Shown in pieces: positions 925 through 21,000 of a DNA stretch of 64,000 nt. The position numbers were made by a program, and so were the translations under genes. Source of the stretch: Candidatus Omnitrophota bacterium (GTDB lineage: Bacteria > Omnitrophota > Gorgyraeia > Gygaellales > Profunditerraquicolaceae); NCBI GenBank assembly GCA_028715415.1, contig JAQURX010000002.1, positions 4,703-68,702 on the forward strand. The letters are read 5' to 3'. Under the pieces are notes generated by a model. It was given only the letters and a program-made list of their open reading frames with translations, had not been told where the DNA came from and searched no databases. The first letter of the stretch is position 1. The number at the start of each line of letters is the position of its first letter.

Positions 925-940
925 AAGAAAAGGATAGATA

Positions 941-2602: not shown

Positions 2603-2605
2603 AAT

Positions 2606-4759: not shown

Positions 4760-4792
4760 TCTTTAGATAGTAATTCCTTTCTTGTCACTAAA

Positions 4793-5134
4793 ATGCAAAT
4801 AATCAATAAAACTACAAATATAAGTTTGGCCAACGAAGTTATTATAGCGCAATCTTTTTTTAAAAAAGCAAAGGGGCTTTTGGGAGTTAAAGAGTTTAAA
4901 GAAGGACATGCACTTATTATTAAGCCATGTAATTCAATCCATACTTTTTTTATGCAAATTTCAATTGATGTTATATTTGTTGATGCAGCAAATATAGTAG
5001 TTAAATGTATCCCAAATCTTCCGCCATTTCGCTTAAGCCCAATTTATTTTGAAGCAAGCTACGTGATTGAATTACCCGCCGGAACAATCAATAAAACCCA
5101 AGTTAAAACAGGTGATTGCCTTTTAATATCATAG
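4793..5134 (+). CDS. DUF192 family protein
   Basis: 113 aa. The pattern ...KKAKGLLGVKEFKEGHALIIKPCNSIHTFFMQISIDVIFVDAANIVV...IELPAGTI matches the conserved DUF192/COG1430 core. Confidence 0.65.
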   Translation: MQIINKTTNISLANEVIIAQSFFKKAKGLLGVKEFKEGHALIIKPCNSIHTFFMQISIDVIFVDAANIVVKCIPNLPPFRLSPIYFEASYVIELPAGTINKTQVKTGDCLLIS

Positions 5135-5172
5135 CCTATCTGTCCTTTTCAGTTGTTTAAACCTTATTATAA

Positions 5173-5250
5173 ATGTCCAATCAGAGTTCTTGACAATGTC
5201 CAATCTATTTGGTACACTTTAATTGCTATATAAAAATGTCCAAACTGGAG
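5173..5250 (+). promoter_or_regulatory. Cluster of three direct repeats ATGTCCAA(T/A)C overlapping the promoter; candidate operator
   Basis: Exact ATGTCCAATC at 5173-5182 and 5196-5205; ATGTCCAAACTGGAG at 5236-5250. The first two copies are 23 nt apart. The same motif recurs three times at 16493-16555. Confidence 0.5.
5190..5218 (+). promoter_or_regulatory. sigma70-type promoter TTGACA-N17-TACACT for the HTH/PE-rich gene
   Basis: TTGACA lies at 5190-5195, a 17-nt spacer at 5196-5212, and TACACT at 5213-5218. The spacer itself contains one ATGTCCAATC repeat. Confidence 0.5.
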
Positions 5251-5264
5251 TGCTTGAGGTAGGT

Positions 5265-7244
5265 ATGGGTGTAATTTATAAATTAAGGCCGGAAATTAAG
5301 GATTTTATTGTTGAGAAGAAGAAGATTAATCCAATTATTAGTTGTCGTGGCCTTACTGAGCTTATTGAATCTGAATTTAAAATTAAATTATCAAAGTCTA
5401 CTATTAATGCAATAATTAAAGATGCTGGCTTAAGTATGCCGATTGGAAGGAGGCTTAAGAAGCACAAGCATCATCCCAAGGAGCAGATTGTTGAATCAAA
5501 AGAACCGCCTCTAGAATCACCTTCAAAAGAGTTGGTTCCCGTCGAGAAAAAGCCGGAGCAAATAGCTCAGCCAATCAGTATTCCTAAAATTGAAGAACCT
5601 GTTGAAGAAATAAAACCGCCGCAAGAAGCCCCTGAAACACCAATAATTCTCCCAGAAGAAAAACCAATTGAAGAAAAGAAAGAGGAATTGCCAGAGGTTC
5701 AAATAGAAAAGCCAGAGGAGCCGGTTATTGTTGAAAAGCAAGAAGAACTGATTCCTCCTCCAGAGCCTATTTTGGCTAAAGAAGAATTAGCTCAACCTGT
5801 TGCTCCAGAAGAAGTTATTGAAAAAGAACCAGAAAAAGAAGAAATTAGTGAGCCTGTAGTAGAAAAAGTTGTCGAGCCTGCAATATTACCTGTTGCAAGA
5901 GAAGAAGTTAAGAAAAATGAATCTTATGAGGAATTAGTCTCAACTGGAGCGGTTCTTTTAAAAGCTGCTGATTTTATTATTGGTGGAAGCAGTATAATTT
6001 CTGATGCGATCAGGAGTAGAATTATGTCTCTTGATGCCGCTCTTTTAGCTAAGACTGAGAGTGCAATTTATTTGCCTCTATTCCAAGGAGTAGCTGGTGG
6101 GCAGGAAGATGATTTGGAGAAATTATGGTCTTTAGTTGGACGAAATGTCACTTTAGATGCAATTTTGACATATCTTGATGATTTGCAGAAGGTTAAGCCA
6201 GTTAATACTGATATAATCCGTATTATTGACACCTCGGCGCAGGAAGTGAGGTGTATTAAGCTAGATCTTTCTAACGGAAGTATCTTGTATTTGGATGGGC
6301 AGTTTCAAACAGTGTGGTCAACACCGCATATACCGCATAGTTTTAACCTAACTGTAAATAATGTAAAGGGTTACATCAATAATTATTTCTTTGAAGAAAA
6401 GCCGTTAATCCTCGGTATGGCCCCGGGTTATGATTCTCCAACTGATGAATTTTTTAATTTTGCTTTAAGTCTTGATTCAAGAGAAAGAAAAATACGTTCA
6501 CTTTCTCTGATTGCGGATAATCTTGAAGAAATTGAAGTAATCCCAGTTGAAACAGCCCGAAGAAGGTTTTTTATTTTTGGCTTATGGCCGTGGCAATTTA
6601 CTCAGAGCCGGAAAGTAAGTTTATCCGGGGAATTTAAACCGTATCAATCCAATGTTTGCAAAAAAGAGTTATTTATAGCTTCCCTCGGGATTATTTTATC
6701 GCAAGTATCTGGAGATAAATCACTTACATTAAGAGGCTATGCAATAAAAACAAATCTTAACGAGAAAACCAGGTTGGTAATTTTAAGTAATCTTCCCATA
6801 GATACTAGCCCGGATTTATTGATTGAGCCGTATCTTGGCCGTTGGCCGAACTTTGAAGAGGCTTTTAAGGATTTTAGCCGAAAAGTTGAATTATTTACTT
6901 ATACCGCGAATTCGCAGAAATATTTTTCCTCAGCTTCTGCAGATTTATTTACTGTGGCAAACATTGATATCAAAACGATTTTCAACCAGTATCTGAAACT
7001 TTTGGATATGTTCGTAAAATATCATTTTCTACCTCCCGGGTCTGAAGATACAGATTTCTCGTCGATGAAAGAGCAGTTTTATAGCCTTAAAACCACATTT
7101 AAGAAAGAAAAGGGCTGTGTTTTTATCAAATTTCTTACCCCCGAAGGATATGCTTCGCAAAAGCTGCTTTCTTACGCCTGCAACAGACTGAACGAAAGAG
7201 AGATTATTTTCTTTAACGGCCTGCGCGCCTGGTTTTCGCTTTAG
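5265..7244 (+). CDS. Protein with an N-terminal helix-turn-helix-like domain, a ~200-aa Pro/Glu/Val/Lys-rich linker and a ~430-aa C-terminal domain of unknown function
   Basis: The ORF track starts at a TTG at 5223. ATG at 5265 with GAGGTAGG upstream is the more likely start. The N-terminus (RGLTELIESEFKIKLSKSTINAIIKDAGL) looks like a transposase- or regulator-type HTH. The PEVK-like low-complexity region spans ~5480-5900. Confidence 0.6.
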   Translation: MGVIYKLRPEIKDFIVEKKKINPIISCRGLTELIESEFKIKLSKSTINAIIKDAGLSMPIGRRLKKHKHHPKEQIVESKEPPLESPSKELVPVEKKPEQIAQPISIPKIEEPVEEIKPPQEAPETPIILPEEKPIEEKKEELPEVQIEKPEEPVIVEKQEELIPPPEPILAKEELAQPVAPEEVIEKEPEKEEISEPVVEKVVEPAILPVAREEVKKNESYEELVSTGAVLLKAADFIIGGSSIISDAIRSRIMSLDAALLAKTESAIYLPLFQGVAGGQEDDLEKLWSLVGRNVTLDAILTYLDDLQKVKPVNTDIIRIIDTSAQEVRCIKLDLSNGSILYLDGQFQTVWSTPHIPHSFNLTVNNVKGYINNYFFEEKPLILGMAPGYDSPTDEFFNFALSLDSRERKIRSLSLIADNLEEIEVIPVETARRRFFIFGLWPWQFTQSRKVSLSGEFKPYQSNVCKKELFIASLGIILSQVSGDKSLTLRGYAIKTNLNEKTRLVILSNLPIDTSPDLLIEPYLGRWPNFEEAFKDFSRKVELFTYTANSQKYFSSASADLFTVANIDIKTIFNQYLKLLDMFVKYHFLPPGSEDTDFSSMKEQFYSLKTTFKKEKGCVFIKFLTPEGYASQKLLSYACNRLNEREIIFFNGLRAWFSL

Positions 7245-7274
7245 AAAACGCTTTCTTTATACTCCCAAATATCA

Positions 7275-7303
7275 TTGACACTGTATTATATTAATGTTAT
7301 ATT
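7275..7303 (+). promoter_or_regulatory. sigma70-type promoter TTGACA-N17-TATATT (extended -10 TGt) for the Flp pilin operon
   Basis: TTGACA at 7275-7280, a 17-nt spacer, then TATATT at 7298-7303 with TG at 7295-7296. It lies ~230 nt upstream of the first pilin gene. Confidence 0.55.
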
Positions 7304-7311
7304 TTGAATGC

Positions 7312-7445
7312 AATTGAAAGGCGGCAACGAAAAGGCAATTCCACTATGGAGGTAGTGGATGCGCAAAGCCACGGTGAGTATGCTCGCAAAATATTGTTTT
7401 TATATTTCTAGCTTTGGGTCAGAGCGAGAAACTTTTACCGGGTTA
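7312..7445 (+). promoter_or_regulatory. Candidate c-di-GMP-I (GEMM)-like riboswitch aptamer in the pilin operon leader
   Basis: GGCAATTCCACTATGGAGGTAGTGGATGCGCAAAGCCACGG ... GAGCGAGAAACTTTTACCGGGTTACCGAAAGCC shares the GGCAAAC/hairpin/GGACGCAAAGCC and CGGGGTTACCGA signature blocks of the Vc2 c-di-GMP aptamer. It also matches the second element at 16925. It has a longer insertion than typical. Confidence 0.4.
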
Positions 7446-7478
7446 CCGAAAGCCGTCAATGGCTTTCGGTTTTTTATT
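7446..7478 (+). terminator. Intrinsic terminator/attenuator hairpin plus U-tract (expression platform of the leader element)
   Basis: Stem CCGAAAGCC (7446-7454), loop GTCAAT, stem GGCTTTCGG (7461-7469), then TTTTTTATT. The 5' arm overlaps the aptamer 3' stem GGGTTACCGAAAG. Confidence 0.6.
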
Positions 7479-7534
7479 GGATAAATTAGTAAAGACTTTG
7501 TAAAATCAATTAATAAGTTAAAGGAGGTGAGAAA

Positions 7535-7723
7535 ATGTTAAGTTTAAGAGGGAAAAAAGCTCAGAGTACATTAGAGTATATCTTGGTTCTTACGGCTATT
7601 GTTGCAGCAATCGTGGTTGTTTCACAGGGGGTAATAAAAGAAAAGGTTATAAGTATGTTCGGCAATGTAGCTAATCAGGCTGATAAGGCAGTTTCAAAGA
7701 TTAATTTTGATAACGAAGAATAA
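7535..7723 (+). CDS. flp: Flp-family pilin (class III signal peptide, A-QSTLEY motif)
   Basis: 62 aa MLSLRGKKAQSTLEYILVLTAIVAAIVVVSQ. AGGAGGTGAG RBS. G/XXXXEY-type motif with Ala at -1. Confidence 0.75.
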   Translation: MLSLRGKKAQSTLEYILVLTAIVAAIVVVSQGVIKEKVISMFGNVANQADKAVSKINFDNEE

Positions 7724-7751
7724 ACAAAAATTTTTGAGGGAGGTGAAGAAA

Positions 7752-8108
7752 ATGTTGATCTATTTAAACAAAAAAGCGCAAAGCACAGCCGAGTATGTCA
7801 TTGTGTTGGGGTTGGTTGTAGGAGCTGTGGTTGCTATGCAAACATTTGTAAAAAGAGGCTTGCAAGGCAGAATCCATGACGCAGTAAAATATACCGGGGC
7901 TGCAGGCGATACAGATGCAAAAGCAATATTTAAAGGCAACCAGTATGACCCGAATTATGTTGAGAGCAATTTAACAAGATCAAGCTCTTCAGAAGAAAGT
8001 GAAAAAATTGCTACAGGCGGAGGAGAGATTACAAAAGAACTTACCAAGGAATCAAGCTCCACAACTGGTACGCAGACTATGGAAGCAGAAGATGGCAATA
8101 ACGATTAA
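7752..8108 (+). CDS. Flp-type pilin paralog with Ser/Thr/Glu-rich C-terminal tail
   Basis: MLIYLNKKAQSTAEYVIVLGLVVGAVVAM. RBS GAGGGAGGTGAAG before ATG 7752. The ORF track start at 7707 is an upstream in-frame extension. Confidence 0.7.
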   Translation: MLIYLNKKAQSTAEYVIVLGLVVGAVVAMQTFVKRGLQGRIHDAVKYTGAAGDTDAKAIFKGNQYDPNYVESNLTRSSSSEESEKIATGGGEITKELTKESSSTTGTQTMEAEDGNND

Positions 8109-8177
8109 AAGTATGTACTTAACCCCCAATTTTATCGGATAAATTGGGGCGGGCTTGTGCCCAGGGAGGTGGAATAA

Positions 8178-8495
8178 ATGTTGAGATATCACTTAAGAAA
8201 AAAAGGCCAGTCAACTCTGGAATACGCGATTCTTATCGGAGTTATTGTTGCCGGGCTTATCGCGATGCAGACGTATATCAAGAGAGGCTATGAGGGAAAA
8301 TTAAGAGAGAGTGCTGATACTATGGGTAAGCAGTATAATCCCGAGGACACAACTTATAATTATACTACTTCAACCTCTTCTTTAAGTACTGAGGTTGTTT
8401 CTGATTCTAAAACAACAACAACAATTCAGAATCAGACATCGAATAGGACTGGAAACGAAACAGTTGGCGGCGTTACAAACGAAACATTGTTTTAA
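8178..8495 (+). CDS. Flp-type pilin paralog with Thr/Ser-rich C-terminal tail
   Basis: MLRYHLRKKGQSTLEYAILIGVIVAGLIAM. G-QSTLEY fits G/XXXXEY exactly. RBS GGGAGGTGG. Confidence 0.7.
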   Translation: MLRYHLRKKGQSTLEYAILIGVIVAGLIAMQTYIKRGYEGKLRESADTMGKQYNPEDTTYNYTTSTSSLSTEVVSDSKTTTTIQNQTSNRTGNETVGGVTNETLF

Positions 8496-8528
8496 GCAGG
8501 TTAATTAAATTTAAGAGGGGAGAAGCCC

Positions 8529-9380
8529 ATGTTTGTAAAAGCTTTGATATTTTTGGTCGTCTTTGGGGTGATATTCTTTCTTGTCACTTCTGCGTACCCC
8601 GCGTTTGAGATTTTAATGAAACGTTGGCGCAGAAAAAGAATGGATAATATTACCCCAAAGCTGGACCATATGTTTCTGGATATTACATTGCAGAAGCTGA
8701 TGTTTCTGGATGTGTTAGTACCTGTAATATTCGGGATTATAGCAGTTACAGTTTCCAGAAACATTTGGATAGTTTTAGGGGCAATCGTGTTGGGTTTAAT
8801 CATCCCTATCTTCGTGATTAAAAAGTTAGAGTCAATACGCCGGAATAAATTTGCGGGACAAATAGTAGATGTATTGATGATTCTTTCCAGCTGCCTTAAA
8901 GCAGGTTTGAGCATGACGCAGGCTCTGGAAGTTGTGGTTGAAGAAATGCCTTCTCCTGCTAACCAAGAATTTGGCTTAGTAACCCGCCAGATGCAAATGG
9001 GTGTATCTTTGGAGGATGCAATGAACAGCTTGCGCCGGCGTATGAAGGTAAGTGATCTGGATATGGTAGTAACAGCGATGATGGTTGCGAGGGAGAGCGG
9101 AGGAGACCTTACAGAAACATTCTCCCGCCTTGTCTTTACGATTCAGGAACGCAATAAATTAATCAGCCGCGTTAAAGCTTTGTGCGTTCAGGGAAAGTTG
9201 CAGGGTGCGATTATGTCGTTATTACCGATCTTTTTTGCGCTTTTTGTTTATAAGGTTAACCCGCATTTTTTTGATATCTTTTTTGAGGATAACTTTGGAA
9301 GGATGCTTTTTGCATACGCGATAATTTCAGAAATAATGGGGATAATCTTTATCCGCAAATTAAGCAAAGTGGATATTTAG
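8529..9380 (+). CDS. tadB: TadB-like inner-membrane platform protein (T2SS-F domain)
   Basis: 283 aa, multi-TM, with a GspF-like cytoplasmic domain (LKAGLSMTQALEVVVEEMPSP...GVSLEDAMNSL). RBS AGAGGGGAG. Confidence 0.8.
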   Translation: MFVKALIFLVVFGVIFFLVTSAYPAFEILMKRWRRKRMDNITPKLDHMFLDITLQKLMFLDVLVPVIFGIIAVTVSRNIWIVLGAIVLGLIIPIFVIKKLESIRRNKFAGQIVDVLMILSSCLKAGLSMTQALEVVVEEMPSPANQEFGLVTRQMQMGVSLEDAMNSLRRRMKVSDLDMVVTAMMVARESGGDLTETFSRLVFTIQERNKLISRVKALCVQGKLQGAIMSLLPIFFALFVYKVNPHFFDIFFEDNFGRMLFAYAIISEIMGIIFIRKLSKVDI

Positions 9381-9393
9381 GAGAATATATATT

Positions 9394-10287
9394 ATGTTAA
9401 TAATAATAGGGTTGCTTTTAAGTTTAGCGATATATTTAGTGCTCTACCAGATTGGGGTTGCTGCTTCTGAAAAGGCGCATCTTCCGCAGGAAGTTTTTTC
9501 CAATGATGTAGAGCAATCACTTTTGCGTTCTAGTGCTAGCATTGAAACACAGAATACCGCCTGGCTTTCTATTACTAAGCGGTTTAGGGCTCTCGAGAAG
9601 CGTATAAAAGCTACTGGCTTAAGAAGAAAGATAATCAAAGCAGGTTCTCCTATGGGTGTTTTGGAATTCATTTTCTTAAAGATACTTTGTATGACAGCAG
9701 TTCCTTTGATTGCCTTTATTTTATTAGGAAATAAATTTCCGCAGCATTTGGTATTTATTATATCGTTGGGTGTTGGCTTTATTCTTCCGGAATTTTGGTT
9801 GCAAAGGCAGATTAAGATCCGCCAGAACAATATCAGAAAGGACCTGCCCAATATTATCGACCTTTTAAATTTGTGCGTTAGCGGCGGTATGGATTTTATG
9901 CTTGCAGTTAACCGTGTTGTAAAAGAATTACCCAAGTGCGACTTAACGCAGGAATTAAGTGAAGTATACCGCCAGACCCAGATGGGTAAAAGCAGGAAAG
10001 AGGCTTTAAAAGAAATGGCTTGGCGTATAGATATGGCAGAGGTTTATTCATTCGTCAGAACTCTTGTGCAGGCAGATAGGATGGGTTCTCCGATGGCAGA
10101 GGCATTAAAACTTCAGTCAGAAGAGGTCAGGACAAGAAGATTCCATAGAGGAGAGGCAATGGCTTTAAAGGCACCTATAAAACTGCTCTTTCCTCTTTTT
10201 GCATTTATTTTACCGGTTGTTTTGATTATTGTAGGCGGCCCGATTATTTTAAATTTTGTGCGTAACAATGTCAGTATGGGGTTTTAA
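9394..10287 (+). CDS. tadC: TadC-like inner-membrane platform protein (T2SS-F domain)
   Basis: 297 aa. CVSGGMDFMLAVNRVVKELP...YRQTQMGKSRKEALKEMAWR is typical of the GspF/TadC domain. TM segments flank it. Confidence 0.8.
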   Translation: MLIIIGLLLSLAIYLVLYQIGVAASEKAHLPQEVFSNDVEQSLLRSSASIETQNTAWLSITKRFRALEKRIKATGLRRKIIKAGSPMGVLEFIFLKILCMTAVPLIAFILLGNKFPQHLVFIISLGVGFILPEFWLQRQIKIRQNNIRKDLPNIIDLLNLCVSGGMDFMLAVNRVVKELPKCDLTQELSEVYRQTQMGKSRKEALKEMAWRIDMAEVYSFVRTLVQADRMGSPMAEALKLQSEEVRTRRFHRGEAMALKAPIKLLFPLFAFILPVVLIIVGGPIILNFVRNNVSMGF

Positions 10288-10289
10288 AA

Positions 10290-10484
10290 ATGAGAAGACT
10301 AAGACGAGGCCAGAGTACGATTGAGTATTTTTTGATTATGGTGGCTTTTATTTTGGCGCTTCTCGTCAGTAACTTTATTTACAGATTGCATAATCCGACG
10401 GGTTCAGGGATATTCGATAGGTACTTTGTGAATCCGTCCAGCAGGATAGCAGGAAGCATTGGTGCAATGCATTTATTCCATTAA
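10290..10484 (+). CDS. Flp-type pilin paralog
   Basis: MRRLRRGQSTIEYFLIMVAFILALLV. Confidence 0.65.
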   Translation: MRRLRRGQSTIEYFLIMVAFILALLVSNFIYRLHNPTGSGIFDRYFVNPSSRIAGSIGAMHLFH

Positions 10485-10503
10485 GAATTTGGAGGGAAAA
10501 GTT

Positions 10504-10668
10504 ATGTTTAAGAATTTTAGATGCAGAAAAGCGCAAAGCGTTTTGGAATACGCAATGCTCATTATCATTATTGTTACAGCCCTAACAGCTATGAGTTTGT
10601 ATATTCAGCGCGCAATAAATGCCCGTATGAAACAAGTTCAGGCTGAATTGGATGAAAATAAAAGGTAA
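10504..10668 (+). CDS. Flp-type pilin paralog
   Basis: MFKNFRCRKAQSVLEYAMLIIIIVTALTAM. RBS GGAGGGAAAAG before ATG 10504. The ORF track begins at 10459 in the same frame. Confidence 0.65.
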   Translation: MFKNFRCRKAQSVLEYAMLIIIIVTALTAMSLYIQRAINARMKQVQAELDENKR

Positions 10669-10675
10669 GGTAAAT

Positions 10676-11044
10676 ATGAGAAGAGCCCAGAGCACATTAG
10701 AATATTTGGTTTTTATCGCTATCATTGTTGCGGCAGTTACTTCCATGGCCGTATATATGAAAAGGGCTATTCTTGGAAAATACAGGACAAATGCCGAGCA
10801 GGTTAGCGGAAGGTCATTTTATTCTCCGGGAGCAACGGAATCATATTATAAAACAACAAAGGATGTAATAGAGAATAATCATTCGGACAAATTTATACAA
10901 GAAGAGGGCGTTGTCCCTCCGCCAGTAGATGTGCTTGGTTTATCTCTGGGGGGGGAACCGGTGGTTACGCCTAACGTAACTAATATAACAGTTAATTCGG
11001 CTGAAACAGTGTTGCCTTTTGCAAAAGAGCCAGTGAGGCCGTGA
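10676..11044 (+). CDS. Flp-type pilin paralog with extended C-terminal domain
   Basis: MRRAQSTLEYLVFIAIIVAAVTSMAVYM. Likely start ATG 10676 preceded by AAGGTAAGG. ORF track start at 10652. Confidence 0.6.
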   Translation: MRRAQSTLEYLVFIAIIVAAVTSMAVYMKRAILGKYRTNAEQVSGRSFYSPGATESYYKTTKDVIENNHSDKFIQEEGVVPPPVDVLGLSLGGEPVVTPNVTNITVNSAETVLPFAKEPVRP

Positions 11045-11045
11045 T

Positions 11046-11834
11046 ATGAACTACAAAATTAACACAAGAAAACAGAGAGGATTTGCGTTTGCAGAATACG
11101 CTATTCTTATCGGCTTGGTGGCTATGGTGTTTGTAACTATGGATATGTATATTAAACGCGGTATTCAAGCGCGCACAAAGGATATAACAGATTTTTATTT
11201 AAGCCCTAATGGCGCGCCTAAGCAAGCAGTAGACCAGCTTTTGCCCAATAAAACTTACACAAGAGACTCTAGTACGGATTATGATGCAACTTCAGATTTA
11301 TCTATGTCTACAGGTGGAGGTACCGGAGTAGATGTAAGTTCAACCATGACTTCAAAAACACATTCAAAAACTGTAGATCAGGATTTGTATAGCGGCATAC
11401 TACCCGGGAACCTTTTAACTTTTATTCCTTGGGAATCTGGAGATATTCAGGCTCCAAAAAGCGAAGATTATACCAACCCGGATCATACTACTGAAGAAAC
11501 AAAATATGATTGGGAAATTGATGATGATATTCCTCGGCTGCAGGCAGAGGTAGATAAATTGGTTACGAAAGCGCAGATGTTAGAAGAAAGGGCGGCAATG
11601 TTAGATAAAACAAGCGGTTCTGTGTCTTCAGATGCTAATATTTTAAGTGGCAATTTTTTTACCAGTTTCTTTTCTGCAATCACAAGTGGGACTAATTCAA
11701 TGAATCAGACCAGCTCTGATTTATCCAATAATGCCAGTGACCTAAGAAGGCAGGCGCAAGAATTTAGAGATAGGGCTTCTCAAATAGAAGCGAGAATCGC
11801 AAGCCTTACGCAATCAACACAGGTAGGTGCATAA
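11046..11834 (+). CDS. Pilin-like protein (N-terminal Flp-like hydrophobic segment) with a C-terminal coiled-coil region
   Basis: 262 aa. RGFAFAEYAILIGLVAMVFVTM, then Ser/Thr-rich, then a heptad-like C-terminus (LQAEVDKLVTKAQMLEERAAML...RRQAQEFRDRASQIEARIASL). Confidence 0.55.
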   Translation: MNYKINTRKQRGFAFAEYAILIGLVAMVFVTMDMYIKRGIQARTKDITDFYLSPNGAPKQAVDQLLPNKTYTRDSSTDYDATSDLSMSTGGGTGVDVSSTMTSKTHSKTVDQDLYSGILPGNLLTFIPWESGDIQAPKSEDYTNPDHTTEETKYDWEIDDDIPRLQAEVDKLVTKAQMLEERAAMLDKTSGSVSSDANILSGNFFTSFFSAITSGTNSMNQTSSDLSNNASDLRRQAQEFRDRASQIEARIASLTQSTQVGA

Positions 11835-12649
11835 TGATTATATGCGGAAATAATAGAGGACAGGCGGTGTTAGAAATGTCGATTTTCGCGGTTGTATTAT
11901 TTATGGTCTTAGGGGGCCTTATTAGTTATATCCAGCAACTTAACGACCAGCAATATGTGCAGATGGAAACTTTTCGCAGGGCGCTTCAAACAGCAGGTGG
12001 ATCTTTCCCCCAATCATATTTACCAGAAGCTTTAGGAGGCGGCAAAGGAGCGGGTGCTGCGGTTAACTATGTTCTTGTCCAGCACCGTAGATATACTGAT
12101 TTTTCGGATTTCTTCAGGAAAGGCCAGCTGGTTCCTGTCTCTGGCAATGCTTCAATATACTGGGCGATCCCGGCAATTGGCGTAACAAAACCGCAGGACC
12201 GTTTAATTTATAGAATTAATGATGATGAGCCGCTACTTCCTCAAATTGTAAATGATGTAATGGGCGAGTTAAAAGATAGCATCCCGTCAATAGACATTCC
12301 TATTTTAGGCGAAAGTAGTATTACAGTGGGAGTTGCAGATATAAAAACAGATGTTAGTACAGATTTTAAAGAACGGGATATTAAACAAGAAAGCATAAAC
12401 AGTATTATTACTACAAAAAAATCCACACTGAAAGATACGATAAGGACAAGCTTTGGTTATACGGTTATACCGACTGGCTTAGCATCGGATTTAATTGGTA
12501 TTGACCCGGCAAAATTCCCCCAAGCAAATCATTCTATTACGCAGAGATTATATCGGGATGCAAGCGGGCAATATAGATATTCAAGGTTTGTTCCTGAAGG
12601 CACAACTGTAGAGAGAGGCAGGACATGGGAAACTCCTATTGGAAAATAA
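11834..12649 (+). CDS. tadE: TadE-like pseudopilin
   Basis: MIICGNNRGQAVLEMSIFAVVLFMVLGGLISY matches the TadE N-terminal (RGQ..VE..) pattern. Confidence 0.6.
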   Translation: MIICGNNRGQAVLEMSIFAVVLFMVLGGLISYIQQLNDQQYVQMETFRRALQTAGGSFPQSYLPEALGGGKGAGAAVNYVLVQHRRYTDFSDFFRKGQLVPVSGNASIYWAIPAIGVTKPQDRLIYRINDDEPLLPQIVNDVMGELKDSIPSIDIPILGESSITVGVADIKTDVSTDFKERDIKQESINSIITTKKSTLKDTIRTSFGYTVIPTGLASDLIGIDPAKFPQANHSITQRLYRDASGQYRYSRFVPEGTTVERGRTWETPIGK

Positions 12650-12912
12650 AAAATATTATTAAGAATAACAAGGGGCAGAACACTCTGGAGATTACCCTTG
12701 TTTTAATAATTATGATTAGCCTTCTTTATGGAGTGATTAATGTCTGGCTTTGGGGTAACAAACAGATTGTAAAAAGGCAGATTTCGTATAATAATTCAAG
12801 GATACAGGCTGGAACAGCTAAAGATGTATATCTTGAGCCGGTGTGGTGGGATTATAGAGGTAAAGACGCTATAGAAAAATTAACGGAAAACCAAGTCTTA
12901 ATTGATAAATAA
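12625..12912 (+). CDS. Small TadE-like pseudopilin
   Basis: 95 aa NKGQNTLEITLVLIIMISLLYGVINVWLW. Overlaps the preceding gene by 25 nt. Confidence 0.5.
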   Translation: MGNSYWKIKNIIKNNKGQNTLEITLVLIIMISLLYGVINVWLWGNKQIVKRQISYNNSRIQAGTAKDVYLEPVWWDYRGKDAIEKLTENQVLIDK

Positions 12913-12923
12913 AAAGGAAAATA

Positions 12924-15071
12924 ATGTTTATTTATTTTCACCAGAATAGATTAAATTACGAAAAAGGGCAGATGATGCCCGTTTTTATTTTGGTGCTGGT
13001 AGTTATTATTACAATGGCATTGGTTACTGTAAATATTTCTAAGATTGGTCTAATCAAGACAGACTCTTCAAATGCTGCAGATGCCGGTGCTCTGGCCGGA
13101 GGCGCTGCAATGGCAAATACTTTTAATAGTATTGCCTATGCTAATTCAGAGATGAAGGCTGCATATGATGAATTCTTCGCGCAGATGTCCACGATGTTTG
13201 CTATGCAGCTGGTTGCTTTAGTGTTGACTAAAACTTCCGCGACCGCAGCTCAAATAAGCGCAACAGCAGGCTTAGCAGCCGGCCAGGCCGCTGATACGTC
13301 TGCAATGTTAGCATTAGATGAAATTAATAGTGATTTGCCTTGTATTGCAATTGGATTTGCGGAATCGGCTTCTCAAAGCACTACTGCAGCACTCGCAGCT
13401 ATGACAGCTGCTGAAGCTTCAATTGGAACAGCTACTGCCATGATGACTGCAATAAAGATAACAACAGTTGGAATGATGTTATCTACTTTCTTTTTTGCGG
13501 TTGCGCAGAATTTTATGTATTTATCTATCAGAAAAATGGCGCGAGAAGGCAGAAAGAATGCAATCAGGGTTGCCCACCAGTATCTATTTAACAATAGCGG
13601 GATAACTCAAAAGTTAAAAAGGAATATTCTAAAAGACCCGGATTTTGGAATCGGCAATTGGCAGCAATTTAGCAATTATCAACAGGCATTTGCGCTTTTT
13701 ATGAAGTTTATTGTTAAAGACAACTCTTTTTATACTTACCCGTGGATAGATGGGCAAAATAGGACGCATACGGTTACTTCGCAGGTTGACATACGTCCGG
13801 TGGATAAGTTTTCGTTAAAAGTTTCTAATCTGCCGCTTCCCGCAATAGAAGCAATTTTTGCTGTAATCTTAATAACCGTTTCTGCGGCTATCTCTCAGTT
13901 TTCTGCAACCCTTGCTTCTTATGGAAAGGCAATAGCTTCTTACACCGACACAAAAACTAATTATGAGAAGGCACTTGAAGCTTTAGAGAGAGCTTGTGAT
14001 ACTTATTGGCCTTGCCATCTACTTGGAATAAGTTGTGATGTTTATGAGGCATCAATGAATGATGCTATAACTGCATTAACAAAAGGTGAAGAAGCTAACA
14101 AGGCAGGCAATGGTTTTGTTGAGGCTGGCTTAGGCACAAATGCATCAGCAATTGGTACAATTGCCCCAATAAGCACTCTTTTAGTAGGAGGAAATGCTTC
14201 TGCTTTGGGTGGCTTAAGGCCGGGCCCTACATTTACCAGTTTTAGCGATGCCGATGGGCTTTTGTTTATTATTGACTGGATAGAAGATGTTGTGCATGAT
14301 CGTTTAGTGCGCGTTTCAACGACGCAAACTCATGCTGGAGGAGATTTGACTTTATGGCAGACTAAGTATCCAAATATTAGCAGCTATTCTATAGTTAGCT
14401 TTCAGGGAGACGGTCAAATTAAACCTCAGCCAAAAGCAAATTTTGATGCAGATATAAAATGGACTGATATCTATTTACCTGAGATAAATCCTCCGGAGGA
14501 CGCGGTTTGTAAAGAAGTAGAAGGCAAAGTAGGTTTATTGCAAGAGCAGTTGGATAATCTTCAGGCAAGCAGTGATTCAATGGAAGCAAATGCAAATGAT
14601 GTAGATGGGTATGCTCAAACTGTTACAGAAGATAGCAATGCTTTGGCATCAAGTTATACTAGCATAGGCTCAGGGCTTTCTTTGAGCGCTGCGGAAACCA
14701 GAGAAGGGACTAGTGCGATAGATAATAAGGTGCAGAACATAGTAAATTCTTTGCAATCCATCTTAACTTGGATTCAAATCCTGATGGATCCACAGTTGCT
14801 TCCGATATTACTGGAGTTGATAAAGTCGCTTCCTCAAATAAAGGATGGTATTCTTGCAGGCGCAAGTTTTCTTGACGGAGGAGCAAGCTTTCTTAATGGA
14901 GAAGCTGACAGGTTAAATTCTACTGTTGGCTCGGAAACGCAGGCTTACGGAGAATCCACGAACACTATAAGAGAGCATATAGGAGAAGGCGGAGTGCAAC
15001 AGAATGAAATTAATGCAATGCAGGCTGAAATAGAGCAGTATAAAAAAGATTATTCCCAGTGTTCGTTTTAA
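12924..15071 (+). CDS. tadG: TadG-like pilus assembly protein (Tad_N/TadE-G N-terminal domain plus large C-terminal region)
   Basis: 715 aa. MMPVFILVLVVIITMALVTVNISKIGLIKTDSSNAADAGALAGGAAMAN matches the conserved AADAAALAGA block of TadG. The true start may be the ATGATG at 12972. Ala/Ser/Thr-rich. Confidence 0.7.
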   Translation: MFIYFHQNRLNYEKGQMMPVFILVLVVIITMALVTVNISKIGLIKTDSSNAADAGALAGGAAMANTFNSIAYANSEMKAAYDEFFAQMSTMFAMQLVALVLTKTSATAAQISATAGLAAGQAADTSAMLALDEINSDLPCIAIGFAESASQSTTAALAAMTAAEASIGTATAMMTAIKITTVGMMLSTFFFAVAQNFMYLSIRKMAREGRKNAIRVAHQYLFNNSGITQKLKRNILKDPDFGIGNWQQFSNYQQAFALFMKFIVKDNSFYTYPWIDGQNRTHTVTSQVDIRPVDKFSLKVSNLPLPAIEAIFAVILITVSAAISQFSATLASYGKAIASYTDTKTNYEKALEALERACDTYWPCHLLGISCDVYEASMNDAITALTKGEEANKAGNGFVEAGLGTNASAIGTIAPISTLLVGGNASALGGLRPGPTFTSFSDADGLLFIIDWIEDVVHDRLVRVSTTQTHAGGDLTLWQTKYPNISSYSIVSFQGDGQIKPQPKANFDADIKWTDIYLPEINPPEDAVCKEVEGKVGLLQEQLDNLQASSDSMEANANDVDGYAQTVTEDSNALASSYTSIGSGLSLSAAETREGTSAIDNKVQNIVNSLQSILTWIQILMDPQLLPILLELIKSLPQIKDGILAGASFLDGGASFLNGEADRLNSTVGSETQAYGESTNTIREHIGEGGVQQNEINAMQAEIEQYKKDYSQCSF

Positions 15072-16009
15072 GGAGGAGGTGTAAAGTGTTGTTAAAAGCA
15101 AGATACAAGATAATTTCTTTTCTCGCGGCTTTATTTATTTTATCTAATTTGGGAACGTGTTTTTCTGCTTGGTGGGATAATTCATATATACCGGCTCCCC
15201 CTGAAACCGAACAGCTAAGGACGCAAACAAAAGTCTTTTCCGGGACAGAATTCAAATTTACATATTATACCAGCACGCAGGATGAAAAGAGTATAAAGGA
15301 TTTCTATAAACGGGAACTAATTAATTTAGGTTGGAAGGAAAAGCAGATTTTGGATGGTTTAATGGGAGACAAAAAAGAGGAGATAAAAGAGGGTTCAACT
15401 TTAGATTTATTTTTTGACAACAATCTTATTTATGAAAAAGACGGGAAGATGCTCACTGTAACATTCCTTCCTAAAGAAGTCAGGCAGCAAGGAAGGGTTG
15501 ATTATTCAATTAGCATAGGAAAGCCTGATTTCGAAAAGTTTAAAGTTTCTCCTCAGGCAAGCCCAATTCCAAAATTAATGGCTAAGCCCCAAAAGAATGT
15601 TGCCCCGGTTTATCCCGGAGCAGTGTTAGTTAGCCTTTCAGAAAAAGCCGAGTATTTAAAAGCAGTTTATTATACTCAAGATGATATTGAGAAGGTTATG
15701 GATTATTATAAAGGAAAAATGCCTTCATCCGGATGGTCATTGGTTGATGAAGTCCCAATTACAAAAACAGATTACAGTAAGGCAACTGAAAAATTATGGG
15801 ATTTGGAATCATGCCCAACTTGCCAGCAAGGAAAAATAGGATTTTCTCAGATTATGGGAGAGGTTTGGTTTGGAGAATTGAGTTATGCTAATCAAAAAAG
15901 CGATACCTGTAAAGTTGGTTTTATCAACAATGCAAAAGCAGAGGGAGGAAAGCAGGGATATTTACCAGGCTTTACCGCTATAAGAGTAGACTATGAGAAG
16001 AAGAAATAG
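15059..16009 (+). CDS. Secreted or lipoprotein-like protein of unknown function with two internal repeats
   Basis: 316 aa. Likely start GTG 15086 after AAGGAGGAGG. Signal peptide ends near LGTC. Repeated block YYT..D..I.DFYK..L...GW appears at residues ~70 and ~200. Confidence 0.5.
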   Translation: MFVLRRRCKVLLKARYKIISFLAALFILSNLGTCFSAWWDNSYIPAPPETEQLRTQTKVFSGTEFKFTYYTSTQDEKSIKDFYKRELINLGWKEKQILDGLMGDKKEEIKEGSTLDLFFDNNLIYEKDGKMLTVTFLPKEVRQQGRVDYSISIGKPDFEKFKVSPQASPIPKLMAKPQKNVAPVYPGAVLVSLSEKAEYLKAVYYTQDDIEKVMDYYKGKMPSSGWSLVDEVPITKTDYSKATEKLWDLESCPTCQQGKIGFSQIMGEVWFGELSYANQKSDTCKVGFINNAKAEGGKQGYLPGFTAIRVDYEKKK

Positions 16010-16481
16010 TTTTATAAACGCTCAATCATTTGTTGAGTATGCTGTGATTATTGCAGTAGTAGCTGCTGCAATTTTGGCAGGGAGGGCCTTTTTTGTTCGA
16101 GCCTTGCAGGCAAAATACCGCCAGAGCGCAGATACTTTTGGCCAAGGCGAACAGTATGATAAAAGAGCGACCAAAGACGTTTCTTTAGATACTCCGGGGT
16201 CAGATCTTGTCCCTACAATACTCCCTGAGCTTGTGCATGATTGTGATGTAATTAGAGAAAGAGTAACCGGCTTAGAAACATCAATTAGTAACCTTTATAG
16301 TCAGGCAGATAAATTGGAGCAGAGTGCTGCAAGTTTGGCAGTAAGCGCGGCATTGGTAGGCAGCGTAAGCGATATTTCAATTAAGCAGTATAAATCTGAA
16401 GCAACATCTTTAAGAGATGAAGCAGCAGATAAGCAACAGCAGGTAGATACCATTAGAGGCAAGTTTCCAGATTGTTTTTAG
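15993..16481 (+). CDS. Pilin-like protein with C-terminal coiled coil
   Basis: MRRRNSFINAQSFVEYAVIIAVVAAAILAG, then a heptad-like C-terminus. The start overlaps the stop of the previous gene. Confidence 0.6.
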   Translation: MRRRNSFINAQSFVEYAVIIAVVAAAILAGRAFFVRALQAKYRQSADTFGQGEQYDKRATKDVSLDTPGSDLVPTILPELVHDCDVIRERVTGLETSISNLYSQADKLEQSAASLAVSAALVGSVSDISIKQYKSEATSLRDEAADKQQQVDTIRGKFPDCF

Positions 16482-16492
16482 CATGTTTTAAT

Positions 16493-16555
16493 TGTCCAAT
16501 CTGCTAATAAGTAATGTCCAATCTGGATAAAATACAATAAAAATGTCCATTCTGA
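16493..16555 (+). promoter_or_regulatory. Second cluster of three TGTCCAATCTG-type direct repeats
   Basis: TGTCCAATCTG at 16493-16503, ATGTCCAATCTGGA at 16514-16527, ATGTCCATTCTGA at 16543-16555. Spacings are 22 and 29 nt. Same motif as 5173-5250. Confidence 0.5.
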
Positions 16556-16654: not shown

Positions 16655-16858
16655 TGTTTCAAACATCCCACCATTAGGTTCTCTAAAAGTGAAGTAATCA
16701 TGAAAAACAATAGTTTTTGGGAAGCTTTTGCTTCTTTTCTGGCCAGGTAATTGACAATTAAACTAACTAAAAGTAAATTTTTTAAGCAGAGTTAAAACAT
16801 GCTCAAACTAAAGAACTTTCAATATGAAAGCGCTATCATTTTGGTATGATTTTTTGCT

Positions 16859-16887
16859 TGACACTATTAATAACTATATGATATACT
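16859..16887 (+). promoter_or_regulatory. Near-consensus sigma70 promoter TTGACA-N17-TATACT with extended -10 (TGa)
   Basis: TTGACA at 16859-16864, 17-nt spacer, TATACT at 16882-16887, TG at 16879-16880. About 35 nt upstream of the riboswitch. Confidence 0.6.
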
Positions 16888-16924
16888 TTTGATGCTCTTG
16901 GAAATAAGATTGTTTATCTGAAAA

Positions 16925-17005
16925 AGGTAAACTCCGAGTAATCGGAGGACACAAAGCCACGGGTCCTCACGCGAGAAAGAATTGTAGGATAGCCGGGTTG
17001 CCGAA
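16925..17005 (+). promoter_or_regulatory. c-di-GMP-I (GEMM) riboswitch aptamer
   Basis: GGTAAACTCCGAGTAATCGGAGGACACAAAGCCACGGGTCCT...GTAGGATAGCCGGGTTGCCGAA aligns block-for-block with the Vc2 aptamer (GGCAAACC-hairpin-GGGACGCAAAGCC ... GGTAGGTAGCGGGGTTACCGA). Confidence 0.6.
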
Positions 17006-17038
17006 TAAAAAAATTATTTGACAATCCGGCTTTTTTTT
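16991..17038 (+). terminator. Intrinsic terminator acting as the riboswitch expression platform
   Basis: AGCCGG (16991-16996) pairs with CCGGCT (17025-17030) and is followed by TTTTTTTT (17031-17038). The 5' arm is shared with the aptamer P3 stem, so the two structures are mutually exclusive. Confidence 0.6.
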
Positions 17039-17079
17039 GAAGCATTAATAAATAGTTTGTTAAAGAATAAAAAAAGAAA

Positions 17080-18078
17080 ATGAAAAACTTACTATCAAAC
17101 AGATTAATAAAAATAATCATAATTTTAATTATGGTTATTTTTTCTTTTAACCAGGTCGCCTTTGCAGCTCGTCATGCAGCTGGCGGAGGCGATATGGCGA
17201 AATTTAATGCCGGCAAATTCGCAGTAGGAACCGGTATTGGTTTAGCTTCTTTTACTGTTGGTAGTGCTTTAGCTGGCGGGATTTCATCTGGTATGCAAGG
17301 TGGCAGTTTTTCCGCAGGTATTGCTGCAACAAAACCATTAGCCTTTTCCACATGGGCAACAAATTATAGTGTAATGACTACAACCGGCCAATTAGGCAGG
17401 GCTGTTGGTAATATGGGCAATTATTATGGGTGGAATCCAAAAGCCACCTTAGCAATCAGCTCTGCTTTGCAGGGCGTTGTTGGCGGAGGGATGAATCCTG
17501 CAGCTTACGGAACCTCAAGCGTTTTAAATGGCATGGCATTAGGTGGGATCAATGGTAGTGTGCAGGGCGCTGTTTTGGCAGCAACAGCAAATAAAAGAGG
17601 TGTTGTACAGCCTTGGGCTGGAGCTGTAGCAGGAATAGCAGGTGGTTTTGCCAGTGGATTTGTTTCCGGAGCGCTTACGCCTACCAATGGAAACTTTTCT
17701 TTCGGAAATAAATTTAATGCGGGGGCTGGATTTAAAGCCGCGGCTACTTCTACAATTCAAAGCCTTCCTTCTCAAGCAATTAGCGTGGGTGTTGGTTACA
17801 TTGCTCAGAATTCAAAAAATCCACAAGATAGATATATGATTCAACAGGCATTTAGCGGTGTTTATCCTATGGTAAATGCGGTAACTAATCCAGTTTCTGT
17901 AACAAACGTGAGGCAGCTTGGCCCCGGCTTTATTAACGTAAGGGCAACACCAAGCGCATACAATTATTCTCAATTCCAGCATGCTAATCCTGTTGGTTCA
18001 GGGTTGCCATCGAATCAGACTCTTAATTATAATTCAAATTCAGGGATTAATAATTTCCCAACAGCTGGTAGTAGATAA
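17080..18078 (+). CDS. Secreted Gly/Ala-rich protein of unknown function
   Basis: 332 aa, signal peptide IKIIIILIMVIFSFNQVAFA, then Gly/Ala/Ser-rich low complexity. Its stop TAA overlaps the ATG of the giant ORF (TAATG). Confidence 0.65.
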   Translation: MKNLLSNRLIKIIIILIMVIFSFNQVAFAARHAAGGGDMAKFNAGKFAVGTGIGLASFTVGSALAGGISSGMQGGSFSAGIAATKPLAFSTWATNYSVMTTTGQLGRAVGNMGNYYGWNPKATLAISSALQGVVGGGMNPAAYGTSSVLNGMALGGINGSVQGAVLAATANKRGVVQPWAGAVAGIAGGFASGFVSGALTPTNGNFSFGNKFNAGAGFKAAATSTIQSLPSQAISVGVGYIAQNSKNPQDRYMIQQAFSGVYPMVNAVTNPVSVTNVRQLGPGFINVRATPSAYNYSQFQHANPVGSGLPSNQTLNYNSNSGINNFPTAGSR

Positions 18079-21000
18079 TGCATAATTTTGCGCAACTAAA
18101 AACAAACATGAGCGAAGACAGAAACACGACAGAAAATAATCTTCAGGCGGAAGCGGTAAAGGAAGAATTCAAATCCAGTTTTAAAGCTTGGATTAGAATT
18201 GTTGCTTTTATCGTCGTGGCTGTGTTTTTGCCTGAGCAGGCTGCCCAAGCTGCAGGGTATGACTGGAGAGTTATTTGGAATAAGCCGGGTTTATCTATGC
18301 CTGCTGTTTTAAATTCAAATGTCGGCCAAGTTAATCAAATTGATATCCCGTTAACCATAAAGAATATTTTAAAAGAAGTTTCCGGTAAACCTTACACTGC
18401 GATAAAGCTCTCTGATAAATTGACCGTTAATTTAGATAAGCCAATTAACCTTTCCCAAGAGAGAATTGAAGAAATTTACAGCTGGCTTAAAGGCAAGCCA
18501 TGCGGATCAAAAGCACTATTAGATTATTTAAAACTTAAAGGTGTGCAGGTCAGCGAGCAGGATATTGCTGTTATGGCTTTGACAGTGGATATTATGAATG
18601 ACGTGGTCAAGCCGGAAGGCAACCCCGCAATTATTTTGAACTCATTATATGCTTTATCTAAAACCGCGGAATTTTATGGACAAAAACTTTACTCTGTTAA
18701 ATTAGCAACTTCAGATTACGGATCATGGAATAAAATAGCGCCTTTTATCGCCCATCTAAACGGCAACCACTTTGTTTTAATAAATAAAATTTCTGGCAAC
18801 AAAATTTACCTTTCCGATAATCACGCAGAAAAAGTTTTATCCACAGATGAATTCAAAAAACAATTTACCGGCTATGCTTTAATCCCTGAAACTAGCAACC
18901 TGAAACCTGAAACTGTTGAATTGTCTGATGCAGAAGCAATGAAGATAATGGGGGCTGCTGCTGCCAATGATAATGTTTGGGGCGGCCAGCTTAACTTGAG
19001 CTTAGATAGCGGTTCTTCGCCTTCGCGTTCTCCTGCACCGACAACTCAGCCTAGTTATACGCCTCAAGCGCCTGCTCAGCTCGGTCTTGGTTATAGCCCT
19101 TCAACACCGTCTTATACACCTACTTATACGCCAAGCTATACTCCAAGCTATACTCCGACGACTCAACCGTCTTATACTCCTGCTGTGCAGACACCAATGC
19201 CTCAAATTACCAATAATTTCTGGACTAATGTGAATAATTTTGCGAATTATACTCCTACGCCAGTTTATACACCACAAGTTAATACTTATACACCTCCGAC
19301 AAATTACGTAACACCTTATACACCGACAACTCAACCAGTGGTTTATACACCCAGCGTTACCCCATCATACAACCTTAATCTTTTTTCTCCAGTTTCCAAT
19401 TATATTCAAAATACTCAACCTGCTTATAACATAACTGTTCCTTTCGCAGCTCCGGCTTATACGCCTCCAGCAAATAATTATGTTACAACTACTCAGCCTG
19501 CTTATACTCCTGTATCTTTTAAACTAGATTTTAATTCTCCGATAGCAGCTCCGTCTTATACATCGCTTACTAATTATGTTGCACCCGTAGCTAAATTTAC
19601 TCCGACAACGCAACCCGCAGCGGTTAGCATGCCTCAGGCAGGCCCGACATTCTGGGATAGCGTGAATAGTTTCTCTAAATATACTCCTCCTGCTGTTCAG
19701 TCTTATTCAGCTCCTCAAATGCCTGTTGCTCAGCTTACTATAGACCCAGTTGCAAATTCTAAACAATGGTCAAATCAGCCTTATGGAAATAATGTAAGTA
19801 TTATGGGGACAAATGCTGCTGGAATGACTACGATTAGCGGAGCAAAGAATTATTCTTCGCATAACAACACAGTAGCTGTTAATTATCCACAGGGAGCTGT
19901 TTTATTTAATGATAGCAAAAGAGGTTTAGGGGATAGGATAGCTATTGGAGTAGGTAGGGTTGCGGCGAGCTATTTAAATATTCCAAAAAACAGTCCAGTT
20001 AGAGATGTTGCGCTTCAGGTTTGGGATAAAGAAACAACTTCTGTCCGGTATTCTTTGGATACAAATCGGGTAACAGGTGGGTTAACAAGCGGCTCTAAAT
20101 TATTTACAGATTTTTCTTTAGCACCGAAAAGCTCAGTTGTCGCAAATACTGTTTCTCCAGTAAATCGTAATGAACACGCCCTGGTTTTAGGAATAAATAC
20201 TCCTAAATCACCTACGGCATTTCAGATTACGCATGTTGACAGGACTCCTGTCAGCCAGCATATGGGGTATTTTCCGCAGGTAAATACTCTACAAGGAAAG
20301 ATTGCTTTTGATCCCTTGGTTTTGGATACAGGAAGATATAATCCTGTAACTCAATCTATCGCTGGCAAGGGCTGGCATACGGATTTGGCAATTAAAAATG
20401 CCCCTAGTAGTAATTTGCAGGTAGTAGTTGGAAAAACTTTTATAGACAAATTACCCGCTTCTTTACCCGGCATCCAGTCGACAATGACTATCCCAAGCGT
20501 TTCTCGTATGGATATTCCTATGGGTTCAGCAGGGTATAACGCAACGCTTAAAGTCGCGGACAACTATAATTTTTCATCCGGCAGTAAGAAATTTAACGGG
20601 GATTTATATGTAGGAATTCCAGATGCCAAAATAGATTCATTTCAGCAATTGGCTTGGGGTACTAAAGCCCCCGGTAAAATCTGGGTGGATATCAATAAAA
20701 TTCCAAATTTAACCAATAATCCATTTAGTAATTCTCCTGCATTTGGCCCGACAGTTACAAGTAAAATGATCGGAGTAGACCTTTCTCAATTTGCGAAGAA
20801 TCAAAATGCCGCGCAAGGCGGAAAGCCCCAGAAATTACAAGGCGGATGGGAATTAGAAGGAAAGTTAAGTTTTGTTAAGATCGCAAATTATAATTCTAAC
20901 TCTCCAAAGATTAAATCACAGACAGATTGGACATTTAATACTAACGGGTTAGGCGCTCGTTATACCAATATAGGTAAAAATTTGGATTCAACGCCTTTGG

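Follow-up and report, generated by a model that had tools for sequence, protein, structure and literature searches.

A predicted c-di-GMP-I riboswitch with a competing terminator in front of a giant Omnitrophota gene

We examined a stretch of 64,000 nucleotides (64 kb, hereafter the window) from contig JAQURX010000002.1 of a Candidatus Omnitrophota bacterium, in which a leader of the c-di-GMP-I riboswitch class (named for cyclic di-GMP, c-di-GMP) stands in front of a small gene and a gene of more than 15,307 codons. The leader is probably a canonical c-di-GMP-I transcriptional ON switch for a two-gene operon that encodes a 332-residue glycine-rich protein of envelope type and a giant protein of the 'Archaeovorin' type. 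The identity of the aptamer, its pocket, the covariation of its helices, the strength of the terminator, the mutual exclusivity of the two structures and the conservation of the module were all computed. Features of the window are on the plus strand unless stated otherwise, and the coordinates that a first-pass annotation of this DNA had assigned were correct to within one base for every element.

Aptamer, terminator and promoter

The whole window was searched with Rfam cmscan at gathering thresholds, and the sole match was a c-di-GMP-I (GEMM-I) aptamer at 16917-17006, aligned over model positions 1-80 of 80. The best model was RF03167 (c-di-GMP-I-GGC) with 67.7 bits, compared with a gathering score of 59, and an E-value of 7.4e-14 over the 64 kb. 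The first-pass annotation had matched the leader to the GEMM aptamer block by block, and this full-length match above the gathering threshold bears it out. Matches to snoRNA and miRNA families that appeared in the leader when the threshold was relaxed to E = 10 had E-values of 5-7 and were discarded as chance. A minus-strand open reading frame (ORF) of 68 codons that runs over the riboswitch (16914-17120) was taken to be a chance ORF in AT-rich DNA under a conserved RNA.

Homologous loci were collected with the N-terminal 500 amino acids of the giant protein as query, which yielded 17 loci in species-representative genomes; these are cited by number (L001 and so on) where they need to be told apart. 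An independent metagenomic locus, L018/L019, was also compared. In the covariance-model alignment, the equivalents of the pocket nucleotides G20, A47 and C92 are located at 16926, 16953 and 17001, respectively. In the Vc2 riboswitch, G20 and C92 recognise the two guanines of the ligand and A47 contacts it, while C44-G83 forms a conserved interhelical pair (PMC4744006; PMC5888326). The window carries C at 16950 and G at 16992 in the positions of C44 and G83, an agreement at the level of the nucleotides, and helix P1a is capped by a GNRA loop (GUAA, 16938-16941). Among 16 aligned Omnitrophota aptamers, A47, C92 and the GNRA loop were present in all and G20 in 15; L005 and L007 deviate at the C44/G83 positions.

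The secondary structure was scored on a 16-sequence MAFFT alignment of the aptamers (A1) with the Rfam structure imposed. This structure places P1a at 16927-16928/16951-16952 and 16932-16937/16942-16947, and P1b, which the first-pass annotation called P3, at 16955-16958 and 16960-16967 paired with 16987-16991 and 16994-17000. Standard pairs were found in 91.3% of the alignment cells, compared with 30-50% when the 3' partners were slid by 1-3 columns, and the covariation score exceeded that of all 500 column shuffles (500/500). P1a was 100% paired, with five of its eight pairs covarying, and P1b was 98% paired, with two covarying pairs. The helices that had been named P2 and P3 are supported by the seven pairs that changed on both sides and by RNAalifold, which recovered P1a and P1b with six compensatory pairs although no structure was supplied. 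When the aptamer was folded alone, the 5' leader segment GUUUAUCU paired with AGGUAAAC, which comprises junction J1/2 and the base of P1a (16912-16932); the modelled hairpin would hide the G20 equivalent and could be part of a ligand-free state.

The aptamer runs into an intrinsic terminator at 16991-17038, which consists of a stem (16991-17008/17014-17031) of 17 pairs with one C.A mismatch, an AAAAA loop (17009-17013) and a tail of eight U residues (U8, 17031-17038). The hairpin has a predicted free energy of -22.3 kcal/mol (z = -4.6), a stability that not one of 200 dinucleotide shuffles reached. A simple terminator scanner misses it, since the long stem is taken as a 30-nt loop that is above the loop limit of the program; its only calls in this region were on the minus strand and represent the helices of the aptamer in reverse sense. 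The 5' arm at 16991-17008 serves both structures, as had been proposed; within the aptamer it makes up the 3' strands of P1b and P1 together with the C92 equivalent. When the leader is folded freely (-43.3 kcal/mol) the terminator is present, whereas enforcing the aptamer (-25.2 kcal/mol) makes the terminator impossible, so that the arrangement is that of an ON switch. The constrained folding thereby confirms the competition and the mutually exclusive ON arrangement of the first-pass annotation, while the ON direction in vivo would follow from it. In RNA that still lacks the 3' arm, the minimum-energy structure already consists of the P1a and P1b hairpins.

The overlap between aptamer and terminator also appeared in the free fold of nine of 15 relatives, and a complementary 3' arm followed by a U-rich tail pairs at at least nine of ten positions in 12 of the 17 loci. 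Changes in the terminator arms are partly compensatory: a U:A pair of other loci is replaced by C:G in L006, and pairing is also maintained in L018 and L013 although their inner stems differ.

Upstream of the leader is a sigma-70-type promoter (16858-16887) with TTGACA at 16858-16863, an 18-nt spacer, TG at 16879-16880 and TATACT at 16882-16887. In a consensus scan it had 11 of 12 matches in addition to the TG of an extended -10 element, and transcription presumably starts near 16894. The near-consensus TTGACA/extended -10 promoter of the first-pass annotation therefore stands, with its start moved from 16859 to 16858 and its spacer corrected from 17 to 18 nt. The TTGACA is kept in 16 of the 17 homologous loci, most of which also have the TG; the spacer is 17-18 nt in most and 19 nt in one, as measured with a regular expression. 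A conserved box, GAAAGCGCTATCATTTTGGTATGA, at 16826-16849 ends 9 nt upstream of the -35 element, and its counterpart in the relatives, GAAAGCGYTACCAAAAT, occurs at the same place in 15 of the 17 loci. The box may be an activator site or an UP-type element of the riboswitch promoter.

In the proposed mechanism, the strong and constitutive-looking promoter would start an RNA near 16894 whose fate depends on the ligand. At low c-di-GMP, 16991-17008 would pair with 17014-17031 to form the 17-bp hairpin with its U8 tail, and transcription would stop at about 17038, before the coding sequence. At high c-di-GMP, the ligand would lock the three-way junction through 16926, 16953 and 17001 and hold 16991-17008 in P1b and P1, so that the terminator is blocked and RNA polymerase proceeds through the small gene into the giant gene. 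The latter would be co-transcribed with the small gene and probably translated by termination-reinitiation.

Conservation of the module and the genes it controls

The aptamer was detected by the Rfam scan at the gathering threshold in 15 of the 17 homologous loci, which are all 15 for which upstream DNA is available. The contig of L003 opens inside the giant gene and that of L001 inside the small-gene homologue, so that neither leaves room for an aptamer. In the 15 relatives, the ATG of the giant gene is located 160-180 nt past the aptamer and no ordinary gene intervenes, so that the giant gene is the conserved target of the switch. The L018/L019 locus encodes a homologue of the small protein with 53% identity and presents the order aptamer, small-gene homologue, a 4-nt gap and giant-gene homologue. 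With the promoter-aptamer module conserved in 16 other loci and an E-value of 7e-14, the match is more than chance. As judged from these sequence comparisons, riboswitch control of the giant gene is a conserved trait, and the first-pass proposal that the giant gene is under second-messenger control is strengthened.

The first gene behind the switch in the window (17080-18078) encodes 332 amino acids. Its product contains 15% Gly and 14% Ala, has an N-terminal segment resembling a signal peptide and shows an invariant GGG motif after this segment. Seven homologues were found, all unannotated; neither the protein nor its homologues had a Pfam domain, and the protein itself was also without an NCBIfam match. 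An AlphaFold2 model built from seven sequences consisted of Gly-rich helices of low confidence (mean predicted local distance difference test score, pLDDT, of 46), and on this model the protein is predicted to be all-helical and glycine-zipper-like. The first-pass annotation had described a Gly-rich secreted protein. The glycine content agrees with this; secretion was not upheld, and a membrane or envelope protein of the glycine-zipper kind is no less likely. In L018/L019 and L001 the homologues are likewise placed ahead of a giant gene.

At the junction between the two genes, the TAA stop codon (18076-18078) overlaps the ATG of the giant gene (18078-18080) in the sequence TAATG. Three lineages possess the small gene, and their junctions are a 1-nt overlap in the window, a 4-nt gap in L018 and a 2-nt gap in L001. 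Of the 15 relatives without the small gene, 14 (L002, L004-L010 and L012-L017) have a leader of about 170 nt that holds an upstream ORF (uORF) of 21-31 codons, for instance at 3893-3979 in L010, 3938-4018 in L016 and 879-956 in L005; L011 is without one. The stop codon of the uORF falls between -4 and +16 nt relative to the start of the giant gene, with TAA-AAR-ATG as the commonest arrangement, and the uORF is often preceded by a Shine-Dalgarno-like GGTGA or GGTGG. An upstream ORF that ends at the start codon of the giant gene is thereby a trait of the family. The TAATG overlap noted in the first-pass annotation fits this family-wide pattern; the translational coupling that had been deduced from it is plausible, as termination-reinitiation at the giant ATG would suit such junctions. 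The control acts at the level of transcription and does not depend on such coupling. The uORF peptides share a conserved core, ...G-V-R-G-x-[I/F]-Y-F-L-F..., which is encoded by a GGGGTAAGGGG box and a U-rich run. Single-nucleotide indels in this G-box shift the uORF frame in L009 and L004, and part of the conservation may therefore be at the level of the RNA.

A different division of labour, in which the riboswitch governs the small Gly-rich gene alone and the giant gene is expressed mainly from a promoter within the 3' end of the small gene, is unlikely in our estimation. It is suggested by a promoter-like site at 18004-18033, TTGCCA-18-TATAAT, which has 11 of 12 consensus matches and stands 45 nt ahead of the start codon of the giant gene. 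In this AT-rich region, chance alone would produce about 4.7 promoter-like matches in 1.9 kb, and the site is absent from the equivalent place in both L018 and L001, for which reason it was rejected as the main driver. The 15 relatives in which the aptamer is directly before the giant gene have no small gene that could be the separate target. Moreover, the stop and start codons of the two genes overlap, so that no terminator or gap lies between them and the control by the switch would reach the giant gene.

Ligand class, role of the leader and weight of the evidence

Another possibility is that the main product is the terminated leader itself, an abundant RNA of about 140 nt that serves as a c-di-GMP sponge or store, with downstream control being secondary. 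In favour of such a role, the promoter is near-consensus with its extended -10 element, a strong terminator follows, and there is a precedent in the c-di-GMP-I RNA of attack-phase Bdellovibrio (PMC3627812), which gains interest since Omnitrophota are described as predatory. We nevertheless regard this as quite improbable. A downstream ORF is conserved at every locus, whereas the Bdellovibrio RNA has none, and the overlap of terminator and aptamer is that of a classical cis-acting switch. One role would not preclude the other, and the conserved downstream ORFs favour cis-control.

A further question is whether the leader belongs to the canonical c-di-GMP-I class at all, or represents a true c-di-GMP-I-GGC variant or a GEMM-I RNA of altered specificity, which would bind another ligand or have a changed affinity for c-di-GMP. 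The Rfam ranking points to the variant, since RF03167 was the top model for the window and for 13 of the 15 relatives. The variant class was reportedly defined by Weinberg and colleagues (PNAS, 2017); here its definition was derived from the consensus lines printed by cmscan, which are ...GGGACGC-G-AAgCcAcGG...GcUGCcg for RF03167 and ...ggGACGC-A-AAgCcAcgG...GcUgCCgaa for RF01051. The sole systematic difference between them is G instead of A directly 3' of P1a, at the position of A47, so that 'GGC' reads as G20, G47 and C92. At this position the window has A (16953), a mismatch to RF03167 at model position 37, as do all 16 other Omnitrophota aptamers, L018 included.

The competition between the two models of the clan is furthermore an unreliable discriminator. 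The RF03167 scores of the window and the relatives are only just above its gathering score, while L017 and L012 were assigned to RF01051 with 59.5 and 57.8 bits (gathering score 35). Aptamers with a true G47 were sought by scanning metagenomes with the pattern AAAC-N14-18-GRCRCGAAGCCNCGG, which gave 120 loci, nearly all of them chance occurrences in GC-rich DNA; only L040, L109 and L120 were GEMM-I-like. L120 (5160-5309, minus strand) has G at the A47 position and yet scored best on RF01051, with 46.2 bits. Taken together, L040 (563-675, minus strand) and L120 indicated that the outcome of the competition does not follow the defining nucleotide.

Since the equivalents of G20, A47 and C92 are all present and the model competition does not discriminate, the window RNA has, judged by its nucleotides, the pocket of canonical c-di-GMP-I aptamers and ought not to be classed as a GGC variant; we hold a changed class or specificity to be very unlikely. 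The first-pass assignment to c-di-GMP-I is thus retained on the basis of the pocket, with the qualification that the top Rfam family is RF03167 and not RF01051. A practical consequence is that the label 'c-di-GMP-I-GGC' can land on RNAs with a canonical pocket and that automated labels need a check of the A47 position.

One relative stands apart in this respect. The aptamer of L017 (3739-3830) has A at the G20 position (AAAAGUAAAC), the only such case among 17. A replacing G20 is the change said to be tied to GEMM-I variants that sense cyclic AMP-GMP (c-AMP-GMP), reportedly from work by Kellenberger and by Nelson in 2015. The window has G at 16926 and does not show this GEMM-Ib signature. Rare c-AMP-GMP variants are mentioned in the literature (PMC7266159), which, like L017, counts in favour of an altered specificity.

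An OFF-type switch, or one that acts on ribosome access and not on RNA polymerase, is highly improbable here: c-di-GMP-I riboswitches of both polarities exist (PMC11218506) and in some relatives a short GAGUUG/CAACUC hairpin followed by a U-rich tail is compatible with the folded aptamer, but the only terminator of the window needs the 3' strand of the aptamer and has the U8 tail typical of intrinsic termination, and its hairpin ends 41 nt before the ATG of the small gene, clear of the ribosome-binding region.

Several points weigh against the canonical ON switch as we describe it. The fold with the terminator is favoured over that with the aptamer by about 18 kcal/mol, and the switch must therefore be kinetically controlled. 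We infer this kinetic control, as well as the identity of the ligand, the ON direction in vivo and the translational coupling. The closing helix P1 is badly aligned in the MAFFT alignment, with 37% of the cells paired, and the possible AU-rich P1 of the window (16913-16920/17002-17009) has seven of eight pairs with about -2 kcal/mol, which is no better than in shuffled sequences; this is a weakness of the evidence and not a contradiction. The RF01051 score of the window is hidden by the clan filter, although one other clan member passes its gathering score there. The giant gene could also be expressed independently of the switch from the promoter-like site at 18004-18033. Finally, the 3' arm of the terminator is degraded in six of the 15 relatives (CGG to CGA or CAA), which retain only a 6-bp hairpin or have a divergent platform, as in L004. 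Because of this decay, lineages probably differ in how strongly the switch acts.

The giant locus and comparison with known systems

The giant gene is partial in the window, its frame remaining open from 18078 to the end at 64000. The protein has an N-terminal transmembrane segment, followed by Pfam matches to Peptidase_C39 (18642-18893), Peptidase_M50, a site-2 protease family (32421-32642), the cell-wall hydrolase family Hydrolase_2 (40638-40940) and Peptidase_M15_3 (41358-41531), as well as weak GH2 matches. No GGDEF domain was found at E <= 1e-4 in the first 14,974 residues. The N-terminus is 42-56% identical to those of the 17 loci, nearly all of which are from metagenome-assembled genomes of Candidatus Omnitrophota, including genomes from Lac Pavin.

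Directly upstream on the same strand is a complete locus resembling the Tad pilus and type II secretion systems (Tad/T2SS-like, 49-16481). It encodes RcpC/CpaB, a secretin with a C-terminal TonB_C domain, two T2SSF proteins, a Tad-domain protein of 715 amino acids, a 717-residue ATPase in which a ParA/MinD-type (TadZ) part is fused to a T2SSE (TadA-type) part, and a 162-residue protein with a weakly Flp-pilin-like N-terminus. Just past the last gene of this locus, 310-365 nt upstream of the riboswitch promoter, there are three direct repeats of (A/T)TGTCCAnTCTG (16493-16503, 16515-16525 and 16544-16554). Two to three copies of this box occur at the equivalent place in L002, L006, L009, L012 and L013, a pattern that would fit a cluster of protein-binding sites, which the repeats probably are.

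With tens of thousands of codons, the giant genes of Omnitrophota are among the costliest single genes that any cell expresses, and we found nothing published on their regulation in the searchable literature. c-di-GMP is the usual signal to attach and become sessile. If the canonical ON switch is correct, c-di-GMP would license the production of the giant protein, which is the first concrete hypothesis on gene regulation in these uncultured predators and, since the RNA is small, one that can be tested without cultivation. More tentatively, with doubt slightly outweighing acceptance, the promoter, aptamer and terminator together with a leader ORF abutting the start codon may constitute a master switch, shared across the phylum Omnitrophota, for its giant genes associated with predation. 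Were this the case, the largest known bacterial genes would be transcribed only at high c-di-GMP, and the GGDEF domains in many giant proteins and the downstream PilZ genes would close a second-messenger feedback loop around prey attachment.

Both of the latter features were reported by West-Roberts et al. 2023 (bioRxiv 10.1101/2023.11.21.568195), who described PilZ genes downstream of giant genes and GGDEF domains within them, and the same preprint describes Omnitrophota as predatory. The switch would tie together these formerly loose observations. The locus studied here resembles the giant-gene ('Archaeovorin') loci of that work in its N-terminal transmembrane segment, the C39 peptidase, the cell-wall-degrading domains and the upstream Tad/T2SS-like locus. 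Neither that paper nor a 2026 preprint on Omnitrophota genomes mentions a riboswitch, promoter or leader ORF, and full-text searches of the literature for riboswitches in Omnitrophica and for Archaeovorin returned nothing relevant.

Among characterised riboswitches, the window aptamer shares with Vc2 of Vibrio cholerae (RF01051) the three-way junction, a GNRA loop on P1a, helix P1b, and the nucleotides G20/A47/C92 and C44/G83. It also carries the RF01051 consensus blocks AAAGGYAAAC, GGACRCAAAGCC and AGCCGGGYUGCC. A difference is seen 5' of C92, where Vc2 has A and the window has G, while L018 has A. Further differences are the Omnitrophota host, another expression platform, and a giant gene as the target in place of tfoY or gbpA. 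The likeness to RF03167 extends to a nearly identical consensus, including UGCC at the 3' junction, in addition to the highest score; the variant consensus differs in having G at the A47 position, where the window and its relatives have A.

A characterised precedent for the ON logic is Bc2, a c-di-GMP-I ON riboswitch before the cap collagen-adhesion gene of Bacillus thuringiensis (Tang et al. 2016, as summarised in PMC11218506). The two have in common the aptamer class, transcriptional activation at high c-di-GMP, which is a prediction here, and a large cell-surface target. The present system belongs to another phylum, its target is one to two orders of magnitude longer and contains peptidase and cell-wall-hydrolase domains, and an upstream ORF, either the small gene or a uORF, abuts the start codon of the target.

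The merRNA of Bdellovibrio bacteriovorus is a c-di-GMP-I RNA that is the most abundant transcript of the attack phase and was proposed to store c-di-GMP; it has no conserved downstream ORF (PMC3627812). It resembles the leader described here in being a short RNA with a c-di-GMP-I aptamer and a very active promoter in a bacterial predator, and it differs in that the aptamer of the window is fused to a competing terminator before conserved genes. The aptamer class, the pocket and the logic of the ON terminator were already known, and it is the association with giant genes that appears to be new.

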